Below, in pieces: positions 23,880 to 28,615 of a DNA stretch of 53,043 nt. A program made the translations under genes and the position numbers. The DNA lies in contig CAYZKQ010000002.1 in the NCBI GenBank assembly GCA_964478975.1, forward strand, positions 1 through 53,043. The letters run 5' to 3'. The number at the start of each line of letters is the position of its first letter. Position 1 is the first letter of the stretch. The stretch comes from an uncultured Vicinamibacterales bacterium. Its GTDB lineage: Bacteria; Acidobacteriota; Vicinamibacteria; Vicinamibacterales; JAHECP01. The notes under the pieces are model-generated. The model ran no database searches. It saw nothing but the letters and a program-made list of their open reading frames with translations, and was not told the DNA's origin.

Positions 23880-24155
23880 TTACGGGCGGACGGTCGGCGG
23901 CGGGCGGTCGGCGGACGCGGTCCGGTCGCGGTCGCGCCGCAGCCTGACGTCGAATCGCCACACGTAACCGAGCAGTCCTGCGTTCGCCGCGCACAGCACG
24001 CCCGACGCGATCGCCGCCGGCCAGAGCGCCTCGGGTTCGCGGGCGAGCGCCGCCTCGAGGGCCGCCGCGAGCAGCCAGAGCTGGACGACCACCAGCGTGC
24101 CGATGAGGATCACGATGGCGGCGAACAGCGCCGTGCCTTGCTGCCGGGGCTCCAT
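23880..24155 (-). CDS. 91-aa two-TM membrane microprotein, last gene of the Mo-enzyme operon
   Basis: There are two hydrophobic helices, and the SD gggagg lies 21 nt after the Rieske stop. No family was recognised. Confidence 0.6.
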   Translation of the reverse strand: MEPRQQGTALFAAIVILIGTLVVVQLWLLAAALEAALAREPEALWPAAIASGVLCAANAGLLGYVWRFDVRLRRDRDRTASADRPPPTVRP

Positions 24156-24176
24156 CTCGATCGCCTCCCGCGGTGG

Positions 24177-24659
24177 TCAGTCCGTCCAGTCCACCCCGAC
24201 CGCGTAGATCTGGTCGCCGCGCGGTTCGATGCGGATGCGCGGCAGTCGCCGCACCGGGGGTCCCTGCAACGGCCGCCCGTCGGTGCAGGCGAACACCCCC
24301 CGGTGGCAGGGACACCACAGCGTGTCGTCATCCGGCCGGTGCACGACGGCGCACGCCAGGTGCGTACAGACCTGCGAGTACGCACGCAGCGCGCCGTCCC
24401 GACACCGCACCAGAATGCACGGGTCGTCGTCGGTCGGGTAGCGGAAGAGGACCGAGGCGCCGGGCGCGAGGGCGGAGGCGCGCGCGATCGGGACCGCCGG
24501 GCCGGCCGCCGCCGCGATCCGGCGCCCGAAGAGCGCGAGGAGGAAGTTGGCACCGGCGAGCAGTGCGGAGCCGAGGGTCAGGAACTTCGCGAGCTCGCGC
24601 CGCGTGAGGTAGTGGTCCTCGTCCCAGCGCACGGGAAACGCGTCGCGCCACCCCATCAT
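24177..24659 (-). CDS. Membrane-anchored Rieske [2Fe-2S] protein
   Basis: CTHLAC...CPCHRG gives both Rieske boxes including the disulfide Cys pair. The N-terminus has [26 protein letters not shown] (an RR motif plus a TM). Its ATG overlaps the upstream stop (ATGA). Confidence 0.9.
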
Positions 24660-25288
24660 CCGCCTCCCAGCACCACCGCGACATCGTCGCGCACCGGCGG
24701 CTCGCGGTGCAACAGGACCGGCGAGCCGTCGCGGCGCACCAGGTCGACGCGAACCGCAGCCACGGCGGGCGGGGTCAGGACGTAGACCTTGGTCCGCACG
24801 GTTTCGCCCGCCAGGTGCCACTCGTTGGCCGCCCGCCCGGCCCGCGTCCGCGCGATCTCGTCCAGCGTGGCGAACGCGAGGGCCTGCGAGGGGCAGACGG
24901 CCGCGCACATCGGCTTCTTCCCCGCGCTCGTCCGGTCGTAGCACATGTCGCACTTCATCATCTGGTCGAACTCGACCAGATACTTCGGGACGCCGAAGGG
25001 GCACGCGAGCACGCAGTTCGAGCACCCGATGCACCGCGGCTTGAGCGAGCTCTGGACGACGCCGTCGGGTGTGACCTTGATGGCGTCGGCCGGGCAGACC
25101 TGCGCGCAGATCGGGTCCTCGCAGTGCATGCACACCTGCGGCGCCGTCTGGACGGTGTCGCCGCGGTGGATCGTCTCCAGGTGGATCATCGAGTACCCGC
25201 GGTGGGTATCGCACTCCTCGCAGGCCTGCACGCAGGCGCGGCACCCGATGCACCGCGCGTAGTCGATGAAGAAAGCGCGCTCGCTCAC
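24656..25288 (-). CDS. Four-cluster [4Fe-4S] ferredoxin subunit (DmsB/NrfC/PsrB-type)
   Basis: [37 protein letters not shown] and CDMC...CAAVCP are present. The GTG start overlaps the Mo-subunit stop (GTGA). Confidence 0.9.
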
Positions 25289-27507
25289 CGGACGCCTCCG
25301 GCCTCGGGCGGGAGCGCGGCGAGGGCGCCGGCCGGGGGGGCGACCTTGGCGACGCGCACCGCGCACACCTTGAACTCGGGGATCTGCGACACGGGGTCGA
25401 GGGCGCGGATCGTGCAGCGGTTGATGGAGCGGTCGTCCGGCCAGTGGTAGGGGACGAAGACCGTGTCCGGCCGGATCGTCCGGACGACGCGCGCCCGCAC
25501 CACGATGGCGCCGCGGCGGCTCTCGACCTTGACGAAGTCGCCGTCCGCGACGCCGAGCTGGCCCGCCAGCCGGGGATGCAGTTCGCAAAGCGGCTGCGGG
25601 TGATCCTCCACGAGCGCGCCGATCCGCCGCGTTTGCGTTCCGGAGAGGTAGTGCGACACGACGCGGCCGGTCGTGAGGAGGAGCGGATAGGTCTCGTCCG
25701 GCGGCTCGGCGGCGGGGCGCCACCGGACCGGCTGGAAGCGCGCCCGCCCGTCGGGGTGGGCAAAGCGGCCGCCCGCGTAGAGGCGGGGCGTGCCGGGGTG
25801 GTCGGGCGACGGGCACGGCCAGAAGACCCCGTACTCGCGGTCGATGCGCTCCCAGGTGATCCCGAAATAGTCGGCGACGCCGCCGCGCGAGGCCCAGCGC
25901 AGCTCGTCGAAGATTTCGGCCGGCGAGCGGTAGCCGAACTTGTCGGCAGCGCCGAGCTGCGCGGCCAGGTCGCACAGGATGCGCCAGTCTTCGCGGCAGC
26001 CGGGCGGCGGGTCCACGACTTTGCGGTGGCGGACGACCCGTCCCTCCACGTTGGTGGTCGTGCCCTCGTCTTCCTCCATCAGGACGCCGGGCAGGACGAG
26101 GTCGGCGTGCCGCGCGGTCTCGGAGAGGAAGAAGTCGATGGCCGTGAACCACTCGAGCCGTTCCAGCGCTTCGCGGACGAAGTGCCCGTCGGGCAGCGAC
26201 ACGGCGGGGTTGAACGACAGCGTCAGGAGCCCCTTGATGCGGCCCTCGTGGATCGCCTCGATGATGGGGACTGCCGAGAGCCCCTTGCCCGGCAGGGCCT
26301 CTTCGTCGATGCCCCAGACGCTCGCGATGTAGCGGCGGTGCTCCGGGTTCTCGATGTCCCGCCCGCCCGGCAACTGGTCGCACTTCTGGCCGTGCTCGCG
26401 CCCGCCCTGGCCGTTGCCCTGGCCCGTGATCATGGCGTAGCCGCAGCCTTCGCGGCCGATGCGCCCGGTGGCGAGCACCAGGTTGAGGGCGGCCATGCAG
26501 TTGTCGACCCCTTTGCTGTGGTGCTCGATGCCGCGGGCGTGGAGGAGGAAGCTCGTGCGCGCCGGCCCCCAGAGCTCGGCCGCCCGGACGATCAGGTCCG
26601 GGGGCACGCCGGCGATCTCGGCGGCGCGCTCCGGCGGGTACTCCTGGACGACCGCGACCACCTCGTCCCAGCCCGTCGTGTGCGCGTCGATGAAGGCGCG
26701 GTCGATGAACCCGCGGGCGATCATGACGTGGAGCATGCCGTTGAAGACGCCGATGTCGCCGCCGGGCCGGACCGGGATGAACAGGTCGGCCGTACGCGCG
26801 ATGGGGGTCAGGCGCGGGTCGATCACGATGAGGCGGGCGCCGCGCTCGCGCGCCTGCCAGAGGTAGTCGGTCGTGATGGGGGCGCACTCGCCGATGTTGG
26901 CGCCGGCGACCAGAATGACCTCCGCCTTGGGGATGTCGCTCCAGGGATTGGCCGCGCGGTCGATCCCGAGCATCCGCTTGGCGGCGGCCGCTGCCGAGAC
27001 CATGCAGAGACGCCCGTTGTAATCCACGTGCGGCGTCCCCAGCGCCACGCGGGCGAACTTGCCGACCAGGTACGCGCGCTCGTTCGTGATCGAAGCGCCG
27101 CTCAGGACCGCGACCGCGTCGCGACCGTGCGCGCGCTGGATGCGCCGGAACTCGCGCGCCGCCCGGGCGAGCGCCTCGTCCCAGTCGACCGGCTCGAACC
27201 CCTCGCCCTCCCGGCGGAGCAGCGGCGCCGTCAGGCGGTCCGGATGGCGGTTCTGCAGATAGCGCTTGACGCCCTTCGGGCAGAGCTTTCCCTGGTTGAA
27301 CGGAAACGCCTCCCAGGGTTCGAAGCCCACCACCCGGTTGTGGCGGACCTTGAGCTGGATGCCGCACTGCTGGCCGCAGAAGCAGCAGTGCGTCGGCACG
27401 ATCCGGTCCGGTTCCCGATCCGCGGCCCAGCCGTCCGCCGGCACCCGCACGGGGTGCGGGCCGTAGTGGCGCACGAGATCGGGGATGGGCGCGGGGATCC
27501 TAGCCAT
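25285..27507 (-). CDS. Molybdopterin (Mo/W-bisPGD) oxidoreductase catalytic subunit, NAS/NAP-like, without Tat signal
   Basis: It has the N-terminal FS0 motif [10 protein letters not shown]...GKLCPKG (4 Cys), the ligand region [18 protein letters not shown] (Cys, as in NasA/NarB/NapA), and a C-terminal PGD-binding barrel ([12 protein letters not shown]...FVPYHW). ATG 27507 overlaps the upstream gene by 8 nt. Confidence 0.9.
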
Positions 27508-28615
27508 CGGCGCCACGCTCTTCCCCGGCGGCCCGGCGGACGGCCGCCGCCTCGGCCCGCGCGGCGCGCCACAGCAGGTCTTGCGCGATCGCCACGACAC
27601 GGCGCCGGCAGGCCGGGCAGACGTCCTGATAGTGCCCGCCGTCGGCGAGGGCGTATCGGATGCCGAGGGCCTCCTCGACGAGCTTGAGGTCCTCGATCTG
27701 CAACCGCGAGGCGAACGGCTCGCCGCACCGCCGGCAGCGCGCGCGCGCGCCCGCCTCGGCCGCCCGCTTGTAGAACGCCACGCCGAGTTGCGCCGGCCGC
27801 TGGAAGATGTGGAAGAACTTGCCGAACGGAAGATAGAGCAGGGTGAAGATGACCGCGACGGCGTGGAGCTGGGAGAGAAAGCCGTACTGGAGCCCGCCCA
27901 GAAAGTGCGTCGACGCGCTGAGGAACAGTCCCGTGACCGACACGCCGAAGAGCAGCGCGAGGGGCAGCAGGTCGTTCGAGAATTGCTGCACCGCCAGGGC
28001 GCCGCGGTCGCGCCCCCGGCGCCAGAGCGCGAGGAGCACGCCGACGACCACGAGCACCGCCGACACGACGAGGATGTTGAAGACCACCGGCGCGAGCGGA
28101 CCGTCGAGGCGGAAGCGGAAGAGGCGGAGGCCGAGCACGAAGACGTCGTAGTGCGTCTGGACGTCGCGCGGGGTCTCGAACCGCACCCAGCCGAACGACA
28201 GCGGGAAGGTCACGGCGGCGGCGAGCAGGCAACCCCACGCGATCGTCCAGTGGGCGAGCCAGCGGAGGCGGGAGCGCCGCTCGATGAACCGCTGCACGAC
28301 GAAACTGTCCCAGAAGAGGCGGGCGAGGAGCCCGAGGTGCGTCCGGCGCGTCCCGCGGGCCCAAAACAACTGCCACCCGCGCCGCCAGTAGAGGCGCGTC
28401 GGCGGCCGCCGGAGCCACATCGCGTAGCGATAGGCGAGGCTGAACGCGGCGAAGACGGACGCGCCGGCATAGGAGACGAGCGCCGGGTCGAAGTCGCGCA
28501 GGCCGCGGCTGCCGGCGTAGATGCCGGCTATCACGAGGCCCGCGACCCCGAGCCCCCACGCCGTCGCGTGCACGACGTCCGACCCGCAGGCGAGCGCAGG
28601 GTTGCGAGACGGCAT
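27500..28615 (-). CDS. Polytopic membrane protein with NarI/DsrM/HdrE-like core and a cytoplasmic CxxC...CxxC tail
   Basis: It has about 7 TM helices with conserved His residues, [14 protein letters not shown] (a NarI-gamma-like signature), and the tail CRRCGEPF...CPACRRR. Confidence 0.8.

Follow-up and report, generated by a model that had tools for sequence, protein, structure and literature searches.

Five translationally coupled genes lie on the minus strand at positions 23880-28615 of the window, the whole 53,043-nt stretch of DNA analysed here, as read from the open reading frames and their junctions. The gene for a membrane subunit (27500..28615, 371 aa) is followed by that of a catalytic Mo-bisPGD subunit (25285..27510, 741 aa counted from the ATG), a four-cluster [4Fe-4S] subunit (24656..25288, 210 aa, GTG start), a Rieske [2Fe-2S] subunit (24177..24659, 160 aa) and a DUF6755 microprotein (23880..24155, 91 aa). 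The membrane-subunit and Mo genes overlap by 8 nt (ATGGCTAG), the Mo/FeS junction is GTGA and the FeS/Rieske junction is ATGA, and a 21-nt gap with GGGAGG inside leads from the Rieske gene to the DUF6755 gene. Upstream is a nos cluster, confirmed by nosZ, nosD, nosL and nosY, and a minus-strand spacer of 148 nt (28616..28763, read from the sequence) runs from the nosY stop codon to the start of the membrane-subunit gene. A sequence-only reading of this DNA had described both the five coupled same-strand genes and their position 148 nt downstream of nos; all coordinates, overlaps and gaps were re-read and agree with it. Neither a sigma-70-like promoter nor an intrinsic terminator was found within 23500-29000; the spacer may be a promoter site, or the module may be co-transcribed with nos. 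The order of nos followed by the module is also present in an 88%-identical relative.

The Mo subunit displays the Pfam domains Molybdop_Fe4S4 (PF04879), Molybdopterin (PF00384) and Molydop_binding (PF01568). It has a four-Cys FS0 site, with a motif ending in LCPKG, and Cys168 is the Mo ligand by sequence and alignment. All 83 homologues retain C41, C44, C48, C76 and C168, the last of which aligns with FdhF U140 and NapA C179. No Tat/RR motif and no in-frame stop are found in the sequence. An N-terminal extension of 36 aa is conserved, and no Tat motif occurs in this conserved N-terminus. In the active-site alignment the R-L-C-M and T-G-Q motifs follow the Nap/Nas pattern and not that of FDH. 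T-G-Q occupies the position of the formate dehydrogenase catalytic Arg, and Met and Thr stand where FDH has its catalytic His and Arg, as is also the case in Nap and Nas. The features of AioA are missing, with four FS0 Cys and a Cys Mo ligand present instead.

The top-scoring NCBIfam model for the Mo subunit is NasC, at 836 bits, followed by Fdh-alpha at 603 bits. The nearest type is the Bacillus-type NasC, yet the score is under the NasC equivalog cutoff of 1100, and module Mo subunits of three other phyla score similarly against NasC (819-854 bits). Identity to E. coli NapA, E. coli FdhF and Ralstonia NasA is only 29-36%. The name given to the protein in databases is “assimilatory nitrate reductase catalytic subunit”. 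A published survey reports no member of the Fdh, Nas, Aio or Nap clades paired with a four-cluster or membrane-anchor subunit (PMC7331816). With the scores and identities above, this places the Mo subunit outside the characterised clades with the same subunit set, as had been proposed. No published account of this five-subunit enzyme was found beyond a passing remark from 2012 on a related nasC/FeS/Rieske linkage in Bacillus bataviensis, which was never characterised (PMC3475470).

The FeS subunit has 16 Cys in four ferredoxin groups (Pfam Fer4_11), all invariant in 79 homologues and the first of them about 13 residues from the start, and displays neither a signal peptide nor a TM helix. It resembles DmsB/FdnH, with 102.6 bits against NCBIfam DmsB, under the cutoff of 214. 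The Rieske subunit (Pfam Rieske) carries CTHLAC...CPCHRG downstream of a twin-arginine motif and one hydrophobic helix. The RR motif is found in 77/77 homologues, in the form Z-RR-x-hydrophobic in 75 of them, and C-x-H-x2-C...C-x-C-H is likewise present in all 77. The bc/Aio-type disulfide Cys pair is invariant in the homologue alignment, and proteins from different phyla share a conserved W-x-x-D/A-F-P peptide ahead of the RR motif. AioB (1g8k_B) is the top PDB sequence match (E 1e-10), and the ten best Foldseek matches of the AF2 model (pLDDT 89) are all AioB, with a TM-score of about 0.72. Because of the invariant twin-arginine motif, the disulfide Cys and the AioB-like fold, the Rieske domain is probably located on the periplasmic side. 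The 91-aa microprotein matches DUF6755 (PF20540) with 57.3 bits against a Pfam cutoff of 27, and forms a 2-TM hairpin with a basic C-terminus. A small DUF6755-type open reading frame follows the Rieske gene in 69/83 loci in a first HMM round and in 74/83 in a second.

The membrane subunit has 6 TM helices by hydropathy and in the AF2 model (pLDDT 86), which also shows cytoplasmic amphipathic helices and a periplasmic-side beta-sheet. Both termini are predicted to be cytoplasmic, and the C-terminus is a zinc-ribbon-like CxxC...CxxC tail (CRRC...CPAC). In Bacteroidota and Verrucomicrobiota this Cys4 tail is degenerate, and it therefore has no obligatory relay role. The family comprises 176 clusters at 50% identity (E<=1e-30). 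The protein has no match to a Pfam family, Cytochrome_B included; a Foldseek search with the model gave no structural relative, and NCBIfam matches are weak, to the membrane domains of QmoC (E 7e-7) and TcuB. In an hhalign comparison with E. coli NarI only the last helix is aligned (E 0.017, probability 2.7%), pairing H251 with NarI H187 and H269 with NarI H205, so that the two-histidine helix of NarI is kept. H122, H251 and H269 are the only invariant His in 77 homologues. The charge distribution puts H122 and H269 on the cytoplasmic side; together with a P-F-G-K-x-x-H-I-x-Q-R-P motif they lie at the cytoplasmic end and, in the alignment, correspond to the region of the haem bP ligands in NarI. 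To our knowledge, NarI-type proteins (NarI, DsrM, HdrE, QmoC, TcuB) are all partnered by cytoplasmic FeS proteins.

Most of the protein features listed in the sequence-only reading are thus recovered: the four-Cys FS0 and Cys Mo-ligand regions of a catalytic subunit with no Tat signal or in-frame UGA, a DmsB/NrfC-type four-cluster partner, a bc-type Rieske protein with an RR motif and TM anchor, and a two-TM microprotein. The membrane protein had been given roughly 7 TM helices, a count now corrected to 6. Its NarI/DsrM-type signature and CxxC...CxxC tail are both present, but the likeness to NarI is limited to one helix.

Among the best 80 matches, all in independent genomes (59-77% Mo-subunit identity), the membrane, Mo, FeS and Rieske genes occur together in 74 loci, and four of the six loci without the complete set lie at contig ends. 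Carriers belong to more than 10 phyla, including Acidobacteriota, Myxococcota, Bacteroidota, Verrucomicrobiota, Armatimonadota, Actinomycetota, Planctomycetota, Chloroflexota, Gemmatimonadota and Deinococcota; all five genes are also found in Anaeromyxobacter oryzae and on a Deinococcus plasmid. The gene order is mostly the same, with overlapping stop and start codons. In split clusters the FeS, Rieske and DUF6755 genes are still adjacent, a hint of contact between the FeS and Rieske proteins. The association is far beyond chance, and the genes are co-inherited across phyla; the suggestion that the partners might be fortuitous neighbours of the catalytic gene is not borne out. The carriers include ordinary aerobic heterotrophs, not nitrite oxidisers. 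Among those that can be cultured are Flavobacterium chungangense, Algoriphagus yeomjeoni, Edaphobacter aggregans and Deinococcus sp. NW-56.

An anion-transporter gene adjoins the module in 41/80 loci. The transport genes found as neighbours encode NarK-family MFS (31 loci), TDT (7) and Nrt-type ABC (6) proteins, and NarK or TDT is same-strand and contiguous with the module in 28 loci. Other neighbours are NirB (4), RIC/ScdA (11), NnrS (7) and Rrf2 (5), concerned with nitrogen metabolism or NO stress, as well as hemerythrin (6) and Crp/Fnr (10). In Armatimonadota narK lies within the module, with the DUF6755 gene on one side and the membrane-subunit gene on the other. Full-length fusions of NarK to the membrane subunit are also found (P0363, P0412, P0418), and in P0363 the NarK portion shares 54% identity with module-linked NarK. 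This neighbourhood suggests that the substrate is nitrate and that the active site faces the cytoplasm. Nitrate is well supported by the active-site residues together with gene context. Of the earlier proposal of an oxyanion reductase, possibly for nitrate, or an oxidase, the nitrate part therefore stands and the oxidase is not favoured.

Judged from sequence, there is somewhat better than an even chance that the five genes encode one membrane-bound, cytoplasm-facing, probably quinol-linked nitrate reductase complex. The Mo and FeS subunits, which lack signal peptides, would sit at the cytoplasmic membrane face and dock near the bis-His haem b (H122/H269) and the zinc-ribbon tail of the membrane subunit, in the manner of NarGH on NarI. 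Nitrate would enter and nitrite leave via a NarK, TDT or Nrt transporter encoded beside, or fused to, the membrane subunit; the NarK fusions fit a cytoplasmic N-terminus and a functional tie to nitrate/nitrite transport. Electrons would come from the quinol pool, a link that we infer. The membrane subunit would oxidise quinol on its periplasmic face, near invariant H251 and conserved periplasmic-side loops, and the Tat-inserted AioB-like Rieske centre at that face may be acceptor and proton outlet. Crossing the membrane via haem b, the electrons would then reach first the four-cluster subunit and finally, through FS0, the Mo site. The outcome would be a proton-motive redox loop on a Nas-type catalytic subunit, not a Nar-type one.

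The Rieske wiring is the weakest step of this mechanism. Counting against the proposal, NarGHI has no Rieske protein and a redox loop has no obvious need of a Rieske centre. A second haem on the periplasmic side is doubtful because only three His are conserved, and with no such haem the extramembrane Rieske centre would be far from the cytoplasmic-side haem. In addition AioB, the nearest structural relative of the Rieske subunit, is in direct contact with its own Mo subunit and takes it across the membrane by Tat, a precedent that favours a periplasmic topology.

In that opposite topology, which we consider unlikely, the Rieske Tat signal would allow a pre-assembled Mo-FeS-Rieske trimer to hitch-hike to the periplasmic side. 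The uncleaved signal would serve as anchor and the membrane subunit as a quinol dehydrogenase feeding the trimer; nitrate would be reduced outside the cytoplasm, and NarK/Nrt would import nitrite for NirBD. Hitch-hiking through Tat is feasible, as shown by DmsAB, FdnGH and AioAB. The Rieske protein is the sole subunit with a targeting signal, its RR is invariant, and it is closest in both fold and sequence to AioB, which carries AioA; moreover the Mo, FeS and Rieske genes are translationally coupled, and the latter two stay adjacent in rearranged loci. However, the frequent adjoining transporter genes and the NarK fusions speak for the cytoplasm; such a pattern is usual at nar and nas loci rather than at nap loci. 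In the membrane subunit, both the invariant pair of haem ligands and the conserved tail also face the cytoplasm, and conservation of the Rieske peptide before RR suggests lasting cytoplasmic contact. On the Mo subunit, we infer, AioB and the four-cluster subunit would compete for one and the same FS0-proximal face.

A bc1-like bifurcating quinol site in a cytoplasm-facing enzyme should also be considered, though its probability is low. One electron would pass from a periplasmic-side Rieske centre to cytochrome c or a cupredoxin and on to NosZ, Nir or an oxidase, and the other through haem b and the cytoplasmic FeS-Mo module to nitrate. Consistent with this, a bc-type Rieske with its disulfide pair occurs together with a haem b membrane protein, and the redox module lies across the membrane. 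Sharing quinol between two acceptors would also remove the geometry problem of a single cytoplasmic-side haem, and in the window the module comes after nos, a cluster whose product requires periplasmic electrons. However, the 80 loci show no co-conserved gene for a periplasmic acceptor, the membrane subunit does not belong to the bc-type cytochromes b, and with nitrate as a high-potential acceptor there would be no thermodynamic gain.

It is very unlikely that the enzyme acts on a substrate other than nitrate (arsenite, nitrite, formate, chlorate or selenate) or as an oxidase, releasing electrons through the Rieske centre in the way arsenite oxidase does. The high potentials of Rieske centres suit electron exit, and the AioB-like partner and the rank of the Fdh-alpha model agree with this reading. 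Against it are the Met and Thr at the FDH His and Arg positions, the absence of AioA features, neighbours concerned with nitrate, nitrite and NO rather than arsenic, and hosts that include the aerobic heterotrophs noted above. Finally, an ordinary soluble assimilatory NasC beside four unrelated genes, as the database name and best-scoring family would have it, is refuted by the synteny data and can be given almost no weight, and no NasB, NasG or ferredoxin-type partner is conserved in place of the module partners in the 80 loci.

The most likely product of the five genes is thus a previously undescribed nitrate reductase bound to the membrane. Under the cytoplasm-facing proposal its role may differ by organism, serving nitrate assimilation where nirBD and nrt genes are present, and nitrate respiration or denitrification where nos, RIC, NnrS, Rrf2 and Crp/Fnr genes are present. 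Genome surveys now score the enzyme of this module as an ordinary soluble “assimilatory” nitrate reductase.

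The five genes of the module all lie on the minus strand of the window and encode the membrane protein (27500-28615), the Mo-bisPGD (Mo) subunit (25285-27510), the FeS subunit, which has a GTG start (24656-25288), the Rieske protein (24177-24659) and the microprotein (23880-24155). The ORF listing and a direct reading of the junctions bear out the sequence-only reading, which had placed five coupled genes at 23880-28615, and all of the motifs quoted there were found. In order, the junctions read ATGGCTAG (an 8-nt overlap), GTGA, ATGA and a 21-nt gap with GGGAGG. A promoter and terminator scan of positions 23500-29000 found none, a scan of this kind being uninformative in DNA of 72% G+C.

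The nos cluster that had been noted upstream of the module is real. The genes nosZ-nosD-nosF-nosL-nosY directly precede the module both in the window and in a relative that is 88% identical, and 148 nt separate the nosY stop codon from the module start. The locus of the relative (FWPU01000223.1, 13367-20997) has the same order, nos genes and then the module, and about 7 kb lie between its Rieske gene and its DUF6755 and radical SAM genes. An IS21-type transposase/IstB pair lies in this insert, as do two further genes. In the window, nosZ (33220-35082, minus strand) lies directly downstream of a separate Rieske/cytochrome b module (35115-40195, minus strand), such that the nos cluster is of clade-II style with its own quinol-oxidizing complex, including a cytoplasmic flavoprotein. 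The genes, all on the minus strand, are those of a GltD-like FAD/FeS protein (38231-40195), a second Rieske protein (about 37700-38230), a bc-type cytochrome b that is outside the five-gene module (36360-37703) and a multihaem cytochrome c (35115-36341).

Downstream of the module are plus-strand genes convergent with it (20040-23789): FeoB (20040-21857), with FeoA also there, a NosL-like lipoprotein (22172-22651) and a radical SAM/SPASM protein (22638-23789). Two NosL-family genes lie on either side of the module, one inside the nos cluster (29597-30121) and one on the opposite strand downstream (22172-22651). Farther away, the genes at 9624-10979 and 13117-14121 have N-termini that by eye resemble a response-regulator receiver domain and a sigma-54-type AAA+ activator, and the gene at 15151-15849 possibly encodes a Crp/Fnr-type regulator. 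These putative regulators might control the nos and nitrate genes.

A genome scan with one genome per species gave at least 600 pattern matches to the Mo subunit, and 595 of those listed were confirmed as its relatives; at least 595 species-level genomes thus carry one. The best 80 of these (59-77% identity) were taken as the locus set. They span Acidobacteriota, Myxococcota, Bacteroidota (Flavobacterium, Algoriphagus, Pontibacter), Verrucomicrobiota, Armatimonadota, Acidimicrobiia, Planctomycetota, Chloroflexota, Gemmatimonadota and others. Carriers belong to at least ten phyla, dominant soil groups included, and several are cultured. With the four partner proteins as tblastn queries, the membrane, FeS and Rieske genes are found adjoining the Mo gene in 74 of the 80 loci, and four of the six exceptions are contig ends. 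This check of co-conservation shows that the genes are not fortuitous neighbors, and the catalytic, four-cluster and membrane-anchor subunits are co-encoded and co-conserved as in a complex iron-sulfur molybdoenzyme. In 69-74 of 83 loci, the Rieske gene is followed by an ORF that an HMM of the microprotein marks as DUF6755-like. The same five genes are present in Anaeromyxobacter oryzae and on a Deinococcus plasmid, where the RefSeq names are generic and the membrane subunit is called "MFS transporter". In the rearranged clusters of Chthonomonas and Fimbriimonadaceae, FeS, Rieske and DUF6755 genes form one block and narK and the membrane subunit gene another.

The Mo subunit displays the domains Molybdop_Fe4S4, Molybdopterin and Molydop_binding in a domain search. 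Among NCBIfam models it ranks highest with NasC (836 bits), followed by Fdh-alpha (603), haloarchaeal NasA (425) and NapA (265), and all of these scores are below the cutoffs. The cutoff of the NasC equivalog NF047855 is 1100 bits; relatives from three other phyla, among them one from Flavobacterium (Bacteroidota; 854 bits) and one from a Heliobacteriaceae MAG (819 bits), are likewise below it, and Ralstonia NasA reaches 443 bits. From these scores the family appears to be a coherent sister group of Bacillus-type NasC that lies outside the equivalog. Identity is 57-75% within the family, as compared to 29% with E. coli NapA, 31% with FdhF and 35% with Ralstonia NasA. In a MAFFT alignment with these three proteins, C168 aligns with Sec140 of FdhF and Cys179 of NapA. 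The residue that follows is Met (RLCM), as in Nap/Nas, in contrast to His in FDH, and the catalytic Arg of FDH is replaced by Thr in T-G-Q-x-N-x-Q-G-G-R-E (ITGQ), again as in Nap/Nas. Thus the active site is of the Nas/Nap type: FS0 (the FeS site of this subunit itself) has four Cys, the Cys that binds Mo precedes a Met, and Thr stands in place of the FDH Arg. The four FS0 Cys and C168 are invariant in 83 homologs.

Other assignments of the Mo subunit fall short. NapA models give 260-265 bits against cutoffs of 904-930, and the N-terminus (MAKLP... in most homologs, MARIP... in the window) has no RR motif; a 36-residue N-terminal extension, devoid of a twin-arginine motif, is kept across phyla. 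FDH alpha (TIGR01591) gives 603 bits against 666, and both the Cys-His pair and the Arg are absent. The NarG-type model DMSO_red_II_alp gives 125 bits against 985 and arsenite_ox_L 144 against 359. The PDB holds no Nas structure, and the best PDB sequence matches are formate dehydrogenases, followed by Desulfovibrio-type monomeric NapA. A match in Bacillus sp. N5-665 was rejected as a NasC reference, as it is an NAD-FDH-like protein without partner genes. Close homologs of the Mo subunit number in the thousands, and the best 120 are 72-100% identical.

The FeS subunit has a Fer4_11 domain. Its best NCBIfam match is DmsB (102.6 bits, cutoff 214), and the narH model gives 36.5 bits against a cutoff of 524. 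The microprotein belongs to Pfam DUF6755 (PF20540; 57.3 bits, gathering threshold 27), and its Deinococcus ortholog is named "DUF6755 family protein" in RefSeq. No mention of DUF6755 was found in the searchable full-text literature.

No Pfam family is assigned to the membrane subunit. The only significant curated matches are the membrane domains of QmoC (E 7e-7) and TcuB (E 9e-5), far below the family cutoffs, and Pfam Nitrate_red_gam is sub-threshold (14.3 bits, cutoff 22.9). Roughly seven TM helices had been proposed; hydropathy, charge distribution and an AF2 model (pLDDT 86) correct this to a predicted six, with both termini cytoplasmic. In the model, residues 71-107 form a cytoplasmic loop that is strongly basic and has two amphipathic helices, residues 144-169 form a three-stranded sheet on the periplasmic side, and the C-terminal part has a zinc-ribbon-like domain and then a long helix. 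A Foldseek search of the model against the PDB gave a best E of 0.15 and only unrelated helical membrane proteins, mostly GPCRs; thus the search does not tie the fold to NarI. The family comprises 176 clusters at 50% identity (E<=1e-30), and thousands of metagenome protein clusters match it.

In a profile comparison with E. coli NarI only the last helix aligns, in register and weakly (E 0.017). Here H251 aligns with H187, the haem bD ligand of NarI, H269 aligns with the haem bP ligand H205, and P-F-G-K-F-F-H-I aligns with P-F-S-R-L-I-H-I. The only His invariant across 77 homologs are H122, H251 and H269. H122 is at the cytoplasmic end of TM3 and H269 at that of TM6, positions that fit one putative cytoplasmic-side bis-His haem. 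Of the four His of the NarI di-haem arrangement, the helix V pair is present and the helix II equivalent has one conserved His, H122. The second His expected on TM3, at position +10 from H122, is Ala or Gly, and a periplasmic-side haem is therefore doubtful. Cys129 was considered as a second ligand for such a haem and rejected, since 8 of 77 homologs have Thr or Ser at this position. The Cys4 tail is kept in 83% of homologs and degenerate in Bacteroidota and Verrucomicrobiota. As three of the four Cys are lost in these two phyla, an obligatory iron centre was rejected, and the tail is probably structural.

Three metagenomic proteins (P0363, P0412 and P0418) are full-length natural fusions that carry a NarK-family MFS transporter at the N-terminus of the membrane subunit. 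In P0363, the NarK part shares 54% identity with the module-linked NarK. The fusions are consistent with a cytoplasmic N-terminus of the membrane subunit. They speak for a functional link of the enzyme to nitrate/nitrite transport, and so for a cytoplasmic active site. They probably also explain the PGAP/RefSeq name "MFS transporter" on the unfused protein. Two other proteins, P0447 and P0486, were rejected as fusions of membrane subunit to Mo subunit, as their junctions resemble frameshifted read-through of overlapping genes; the P0486 sequence is partly garbled.

The gene context ties the module to nitrate. Neighboring ORFs of the 80 loci were clustered, representatives were scanned for domains, and counts are of loci. 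NarK-family MFS genes are the most frequent (31), followed by an Alginate_exp porin (12), RIC/ScdA (11), a Crp/Fnr regulator (10), NnrS and a TDT anion transporter (7 each), an Nrt-type ABC ATPase and Hemerythrin (6 each), an Rrf2 regulator (5), and NirB, a CysJ-like flavoprotein and a TIGR04053 radical SAM protein (4 each). An anion transporter gene is near the module in 41 of the 80 loci, with NarK or TDT on the same strand and contiguous with the module in 28, and an NO-stress gene is near it in 20 of 80. The TIGR04053-type radical SAM gene, kin of those for the haem-synthesis enzymes AhbD and NirJ, adjoins the module in four loci other than that of the window. In the Anaeromyxobacter oryzae locus (AP025591.1, 6487-14211), PAS, hemerythrin and ScdA-type genes come before the module and an HPP-family membrane protein, of a family that includes nitrite transporters, comes after it, a context related to nitrite and NO. 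Some loci are plainly assimilatory (nrt-nirBD-module), and others have a dissimilatory or NO-exposed look; lineages probably differ in the physiological role of the module. By virtue of this gene context nitrate is a well-supported substrate. The sequence-only reading had proposed an oxyanion reductase, possibly for nitrate, and the Nas/Nap active site together with the nitrate/NO context favors nitrate, such that function as a nitrate reductase is well supported. The conserved neighbors of the Mo gene are those for the membrane protein, the four-cluster ferredoxin, the Tat-Rieske protein and DUF6755, and not soluble partners of the NasC type.

The Rieske protein has a Rieske domain, and its best NCBIfam match is AioB (TIGR02694; 48.7 bits, cutoff 95.65). 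All 77 homologs have RR, in 75 of them as part of a Tat-like Z-R-R-x-hydrophobic motif; an uncharged segment (15-31 residues, median 20) comes next, and one hydrophobic helix lies after the RR motif. The bc/Aio-type motif C-x-H-x2-C...C-x-C-H, disulfide pair included, is also present in 77 of 77. The closest PDB sequence is AioB (1g8k_B, E 1e-10, full domain), and with an AF2 model (pLDDT 89) the ten best PDB matches are all AioB, with a TM-score of about 0.72. Given the RR motif, the disulfide motif and the AioB-like sequence and fold, the Rieske domain is probably on the periplasmic side. The peptide W-x-x-D-F-P-I-x-W before the RR motif is kept across phyla, a degree of conservation that a mere signal would not usually show and that suggests a lasting contact on the cytoplasmic side. 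No natural fusions were found among the 120 best Rieske homologs.

Signal-less Mo and FeS subunits, the cytoplasmic-side haem site and tail, linked and fused transporters and the Tat-targeted Rieske protein together indicate a transmembrane complex. The Nas-type subunit would reduce nitrate in the cytoplasm. Quinol would be oxidized at a site on the periplasmic face, at which the Rieske centre would act, and haem b and the four clusters would pass the electrons on to the Mo site. The overall logic would be that of NarGHI, built from other parts. What the analysis shows directly is the subunit composition, its conservation, the cofactor motifs and the tie to nitrate through neighboring genes. 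A cytoplasmic location of the Mo and FeS subunits is likely, and quinol is, by a smaller measure, the probable electron donor; the part given to the Rieske centre is tentative.

Two main rivals should be considered. The Mo and FeS subunits may instead be carried across the membrane by Tat hitch-hiking, for an Aio-like periplasmic topology. The likeness of the Rieske protein to AioB and the linkage of FeS and Rieske genes are in keeping with this, but transporter linkage and fusion and the cytoplasmic-side haem site speak against it. The other rival is a bc1-like bifurcating quinol site. The Rieske protein is membrane-anchored and has the disulfide motif, as in the bc1/b6f type; Pfam Cytochrome_B / Cytochrom_B_C, the bc-type cytochrome b, has no match in any of the five module proteins. 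In a further reading of this kind, a putative Rieske/haem-b quinol site may split electrons between a periplasmic acceptor and cytoplasmic nitrate. A substrate other than nitrate and a chance adjacency of the genes are both poorly supported, given the active site with its gene context in the one case and the synteny across phyla in the other.

The cytoplasm-facing nitrate reductase proposed here may be compared with known systems. Bacillus NasC and cyanobacterial NarB are alike in a catalytic subunit of about 710-740 aa, the 4-Cys FS0, the Cys ligand in R-L-C-M and the lack of a Tat signal, and some module loci sit, like theirs, among nirBD and nrt assimilation genes. The module Mo subunit differs from NasC in its sub-cutoff score and its conserved 36-aa N-terminal extension. 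Partners of characterized Nas enzymes are an NADH reductase (NasB), a NirD/NasG-type soluble Rieske protein, ferredoxin or flavodoxin, whereas the module pairs its Mo subunit with a four-cluster ferredoxin, a haem-type membrane protein, a Tat-Rieske protein and DUF6755. Nas enzymes are described as soluble and purely assimilatory (PMC7331816).

As proposed, the module would share with NarGHI a Mo subunit that faces the cytoplasm, a subunit with four clusters, a membrane anchor with haem b and an expected redox loop. The last helix of the anchor has two His 18 residues apart, then P-F-x-[KR]-x-x-H-I, and narK linkage is shared. However, the module catalytic subunit is of the Nas/Nap/Fdh branch, with a Cys ligand and 741 aa, while NarG has Asp as Mo ligand and about 1250 aa. 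The FeS subunit is DmsB-sized and not NarH-like, the membrane subunit has six TM helices and only three conserved His, NarJ is lacking, and the Rieske protein and DUF6755 are extra.

AioAB and IdrAB also combine a signal-less Mo-bisPGD subunit with a small Rieske protein bearing a twin-arginine signal, and the module Rieske protein is nearest to AioB by sequence and predicted fold. AioA has a 3-Cys [3Fe-4S] site, and Aio is periplasmic and is not known to have a four-cluster or membrane subunit. In contrast to the Aio/Idr large subunit, the module Mo subunit has four FS0 Cys and Cys168, and the gene context is one of nitrate, not arsenic. AioA has no amino-acid Mo ligand (PMC7331816).

Archaeal pNar (NarGH with Rieske NarB and cytochrome b NarC) is similar in that a nitrate reductase is co-encoded with a Rieske and a haem b membrane protein. 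A quinol-oxidizing Rieske/b module has been proposed for pNar, which has NarG/NarH-type subunits, a Tat signal on NarG, an active site outside the cell and a bc-type cytochrome b as NarC. The module catalytic subunit is instead Nas-type, without a signal peptide, and the membrane protein is NarI-like, not bc-like. The NarI-like membrane modules of DsrMK, HdrDE, QmoC and TcuB pass electrons between the quinone pool and an FeS partner in the cytoplasm, and QmoC and TcuB are the curated matches of the membrane subunit. The module protein differs in two extra N-terminal helices, the periplasmic-side beta-sheet and the zinc-ribbon-like tail, and its partner is a Mo enzyme, not a CCG-domain protein.

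According to Wells et al. 2020, the Fdh/Nas/Aio/Nap clade is never tied to canonical four-cluster or membrane-anchor subunits, the role of Nas is assimilation only, and AioA is proposed to have arisen from within NasC/NasA (PMC7331816); NasC/NasA are handled likewise in a survey from 2023 (PMC10100899). At the genomic level, the module contradicts the claim that Nas-type subunits never pair with such partners. In a more speculative reading, it may also keep the ancestral Nas-Rieske partnership that gave rise to arsenite oxidase and iodate reductase, enzymes whose large subunit has been proposed to come from NasC/NasA. In Bacillus bataviensis, nasC is linked to iron-sulfur and Rieske proteins, for which "an alternative assimilatory system" was suggested (Heylen and Keltjens 2012, PMC3475470). 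Beyond this remark, no description of the module was found in the searchable full-text literature, subscription-only papers lying outside that scope. Together with scores of the Mo subunit below all NCBIfam cutoffs, this agrees with the earlier statement that the module matches no described enzyme. Judged from its genes, the module appears to be a Mo-bisPGD nitrate reductase with an undescribed subunit architecture.

In databases the subunits are found as "assimilatory nitrate reductase", "MFS transporter", "arsenite oxidase small subunit" and "hypothetical protein". At JGI, many of the best 120 Mo subunit homologs are labeled "assimilatory nitrate reductase catalytic subunit", and the Rieske subunit appears as "arsenite oxidase small subunit", "nitrite reductase/ring-hydroxylating ferredoxin subunit" or "Rieske Fe-S protein". 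Because of these names, nitrogen- and arsenic-cycle inventories made from KO or PGAP names likely misassign the module, and surveys that count aioB and nasA genes may pick it up.

Textbook accounts divide the nitrate reductases of prokaryotes into Nar, Nap and Nas, three types in all. That the module is a fourth architectural class, with a Nas-type subunit wired across the membrane to a Tat-inserted, AioB-like Rieske protein, is a speculative reading that we hold to be rather unlikely. If it is true, a large share of the "nasA" genes counted in soil groups (Acidobacteriota, Bacteroidota, Verrucomicrobiota and others) would be genes for a membrane-bound enzyme that conserves energy. As several carriers are cultured, energy coupling and the role of the Rieske protein are experimentally tractable. 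The module is also a testable candidate for the evolutionary link between Nas and the Rieske-containing Aio/Idr enzymes. If the enzyme is energy-conserving and respiratory, it could explain nitrate reduction in the absence of narG and napA, and would change how nasA counts are read.
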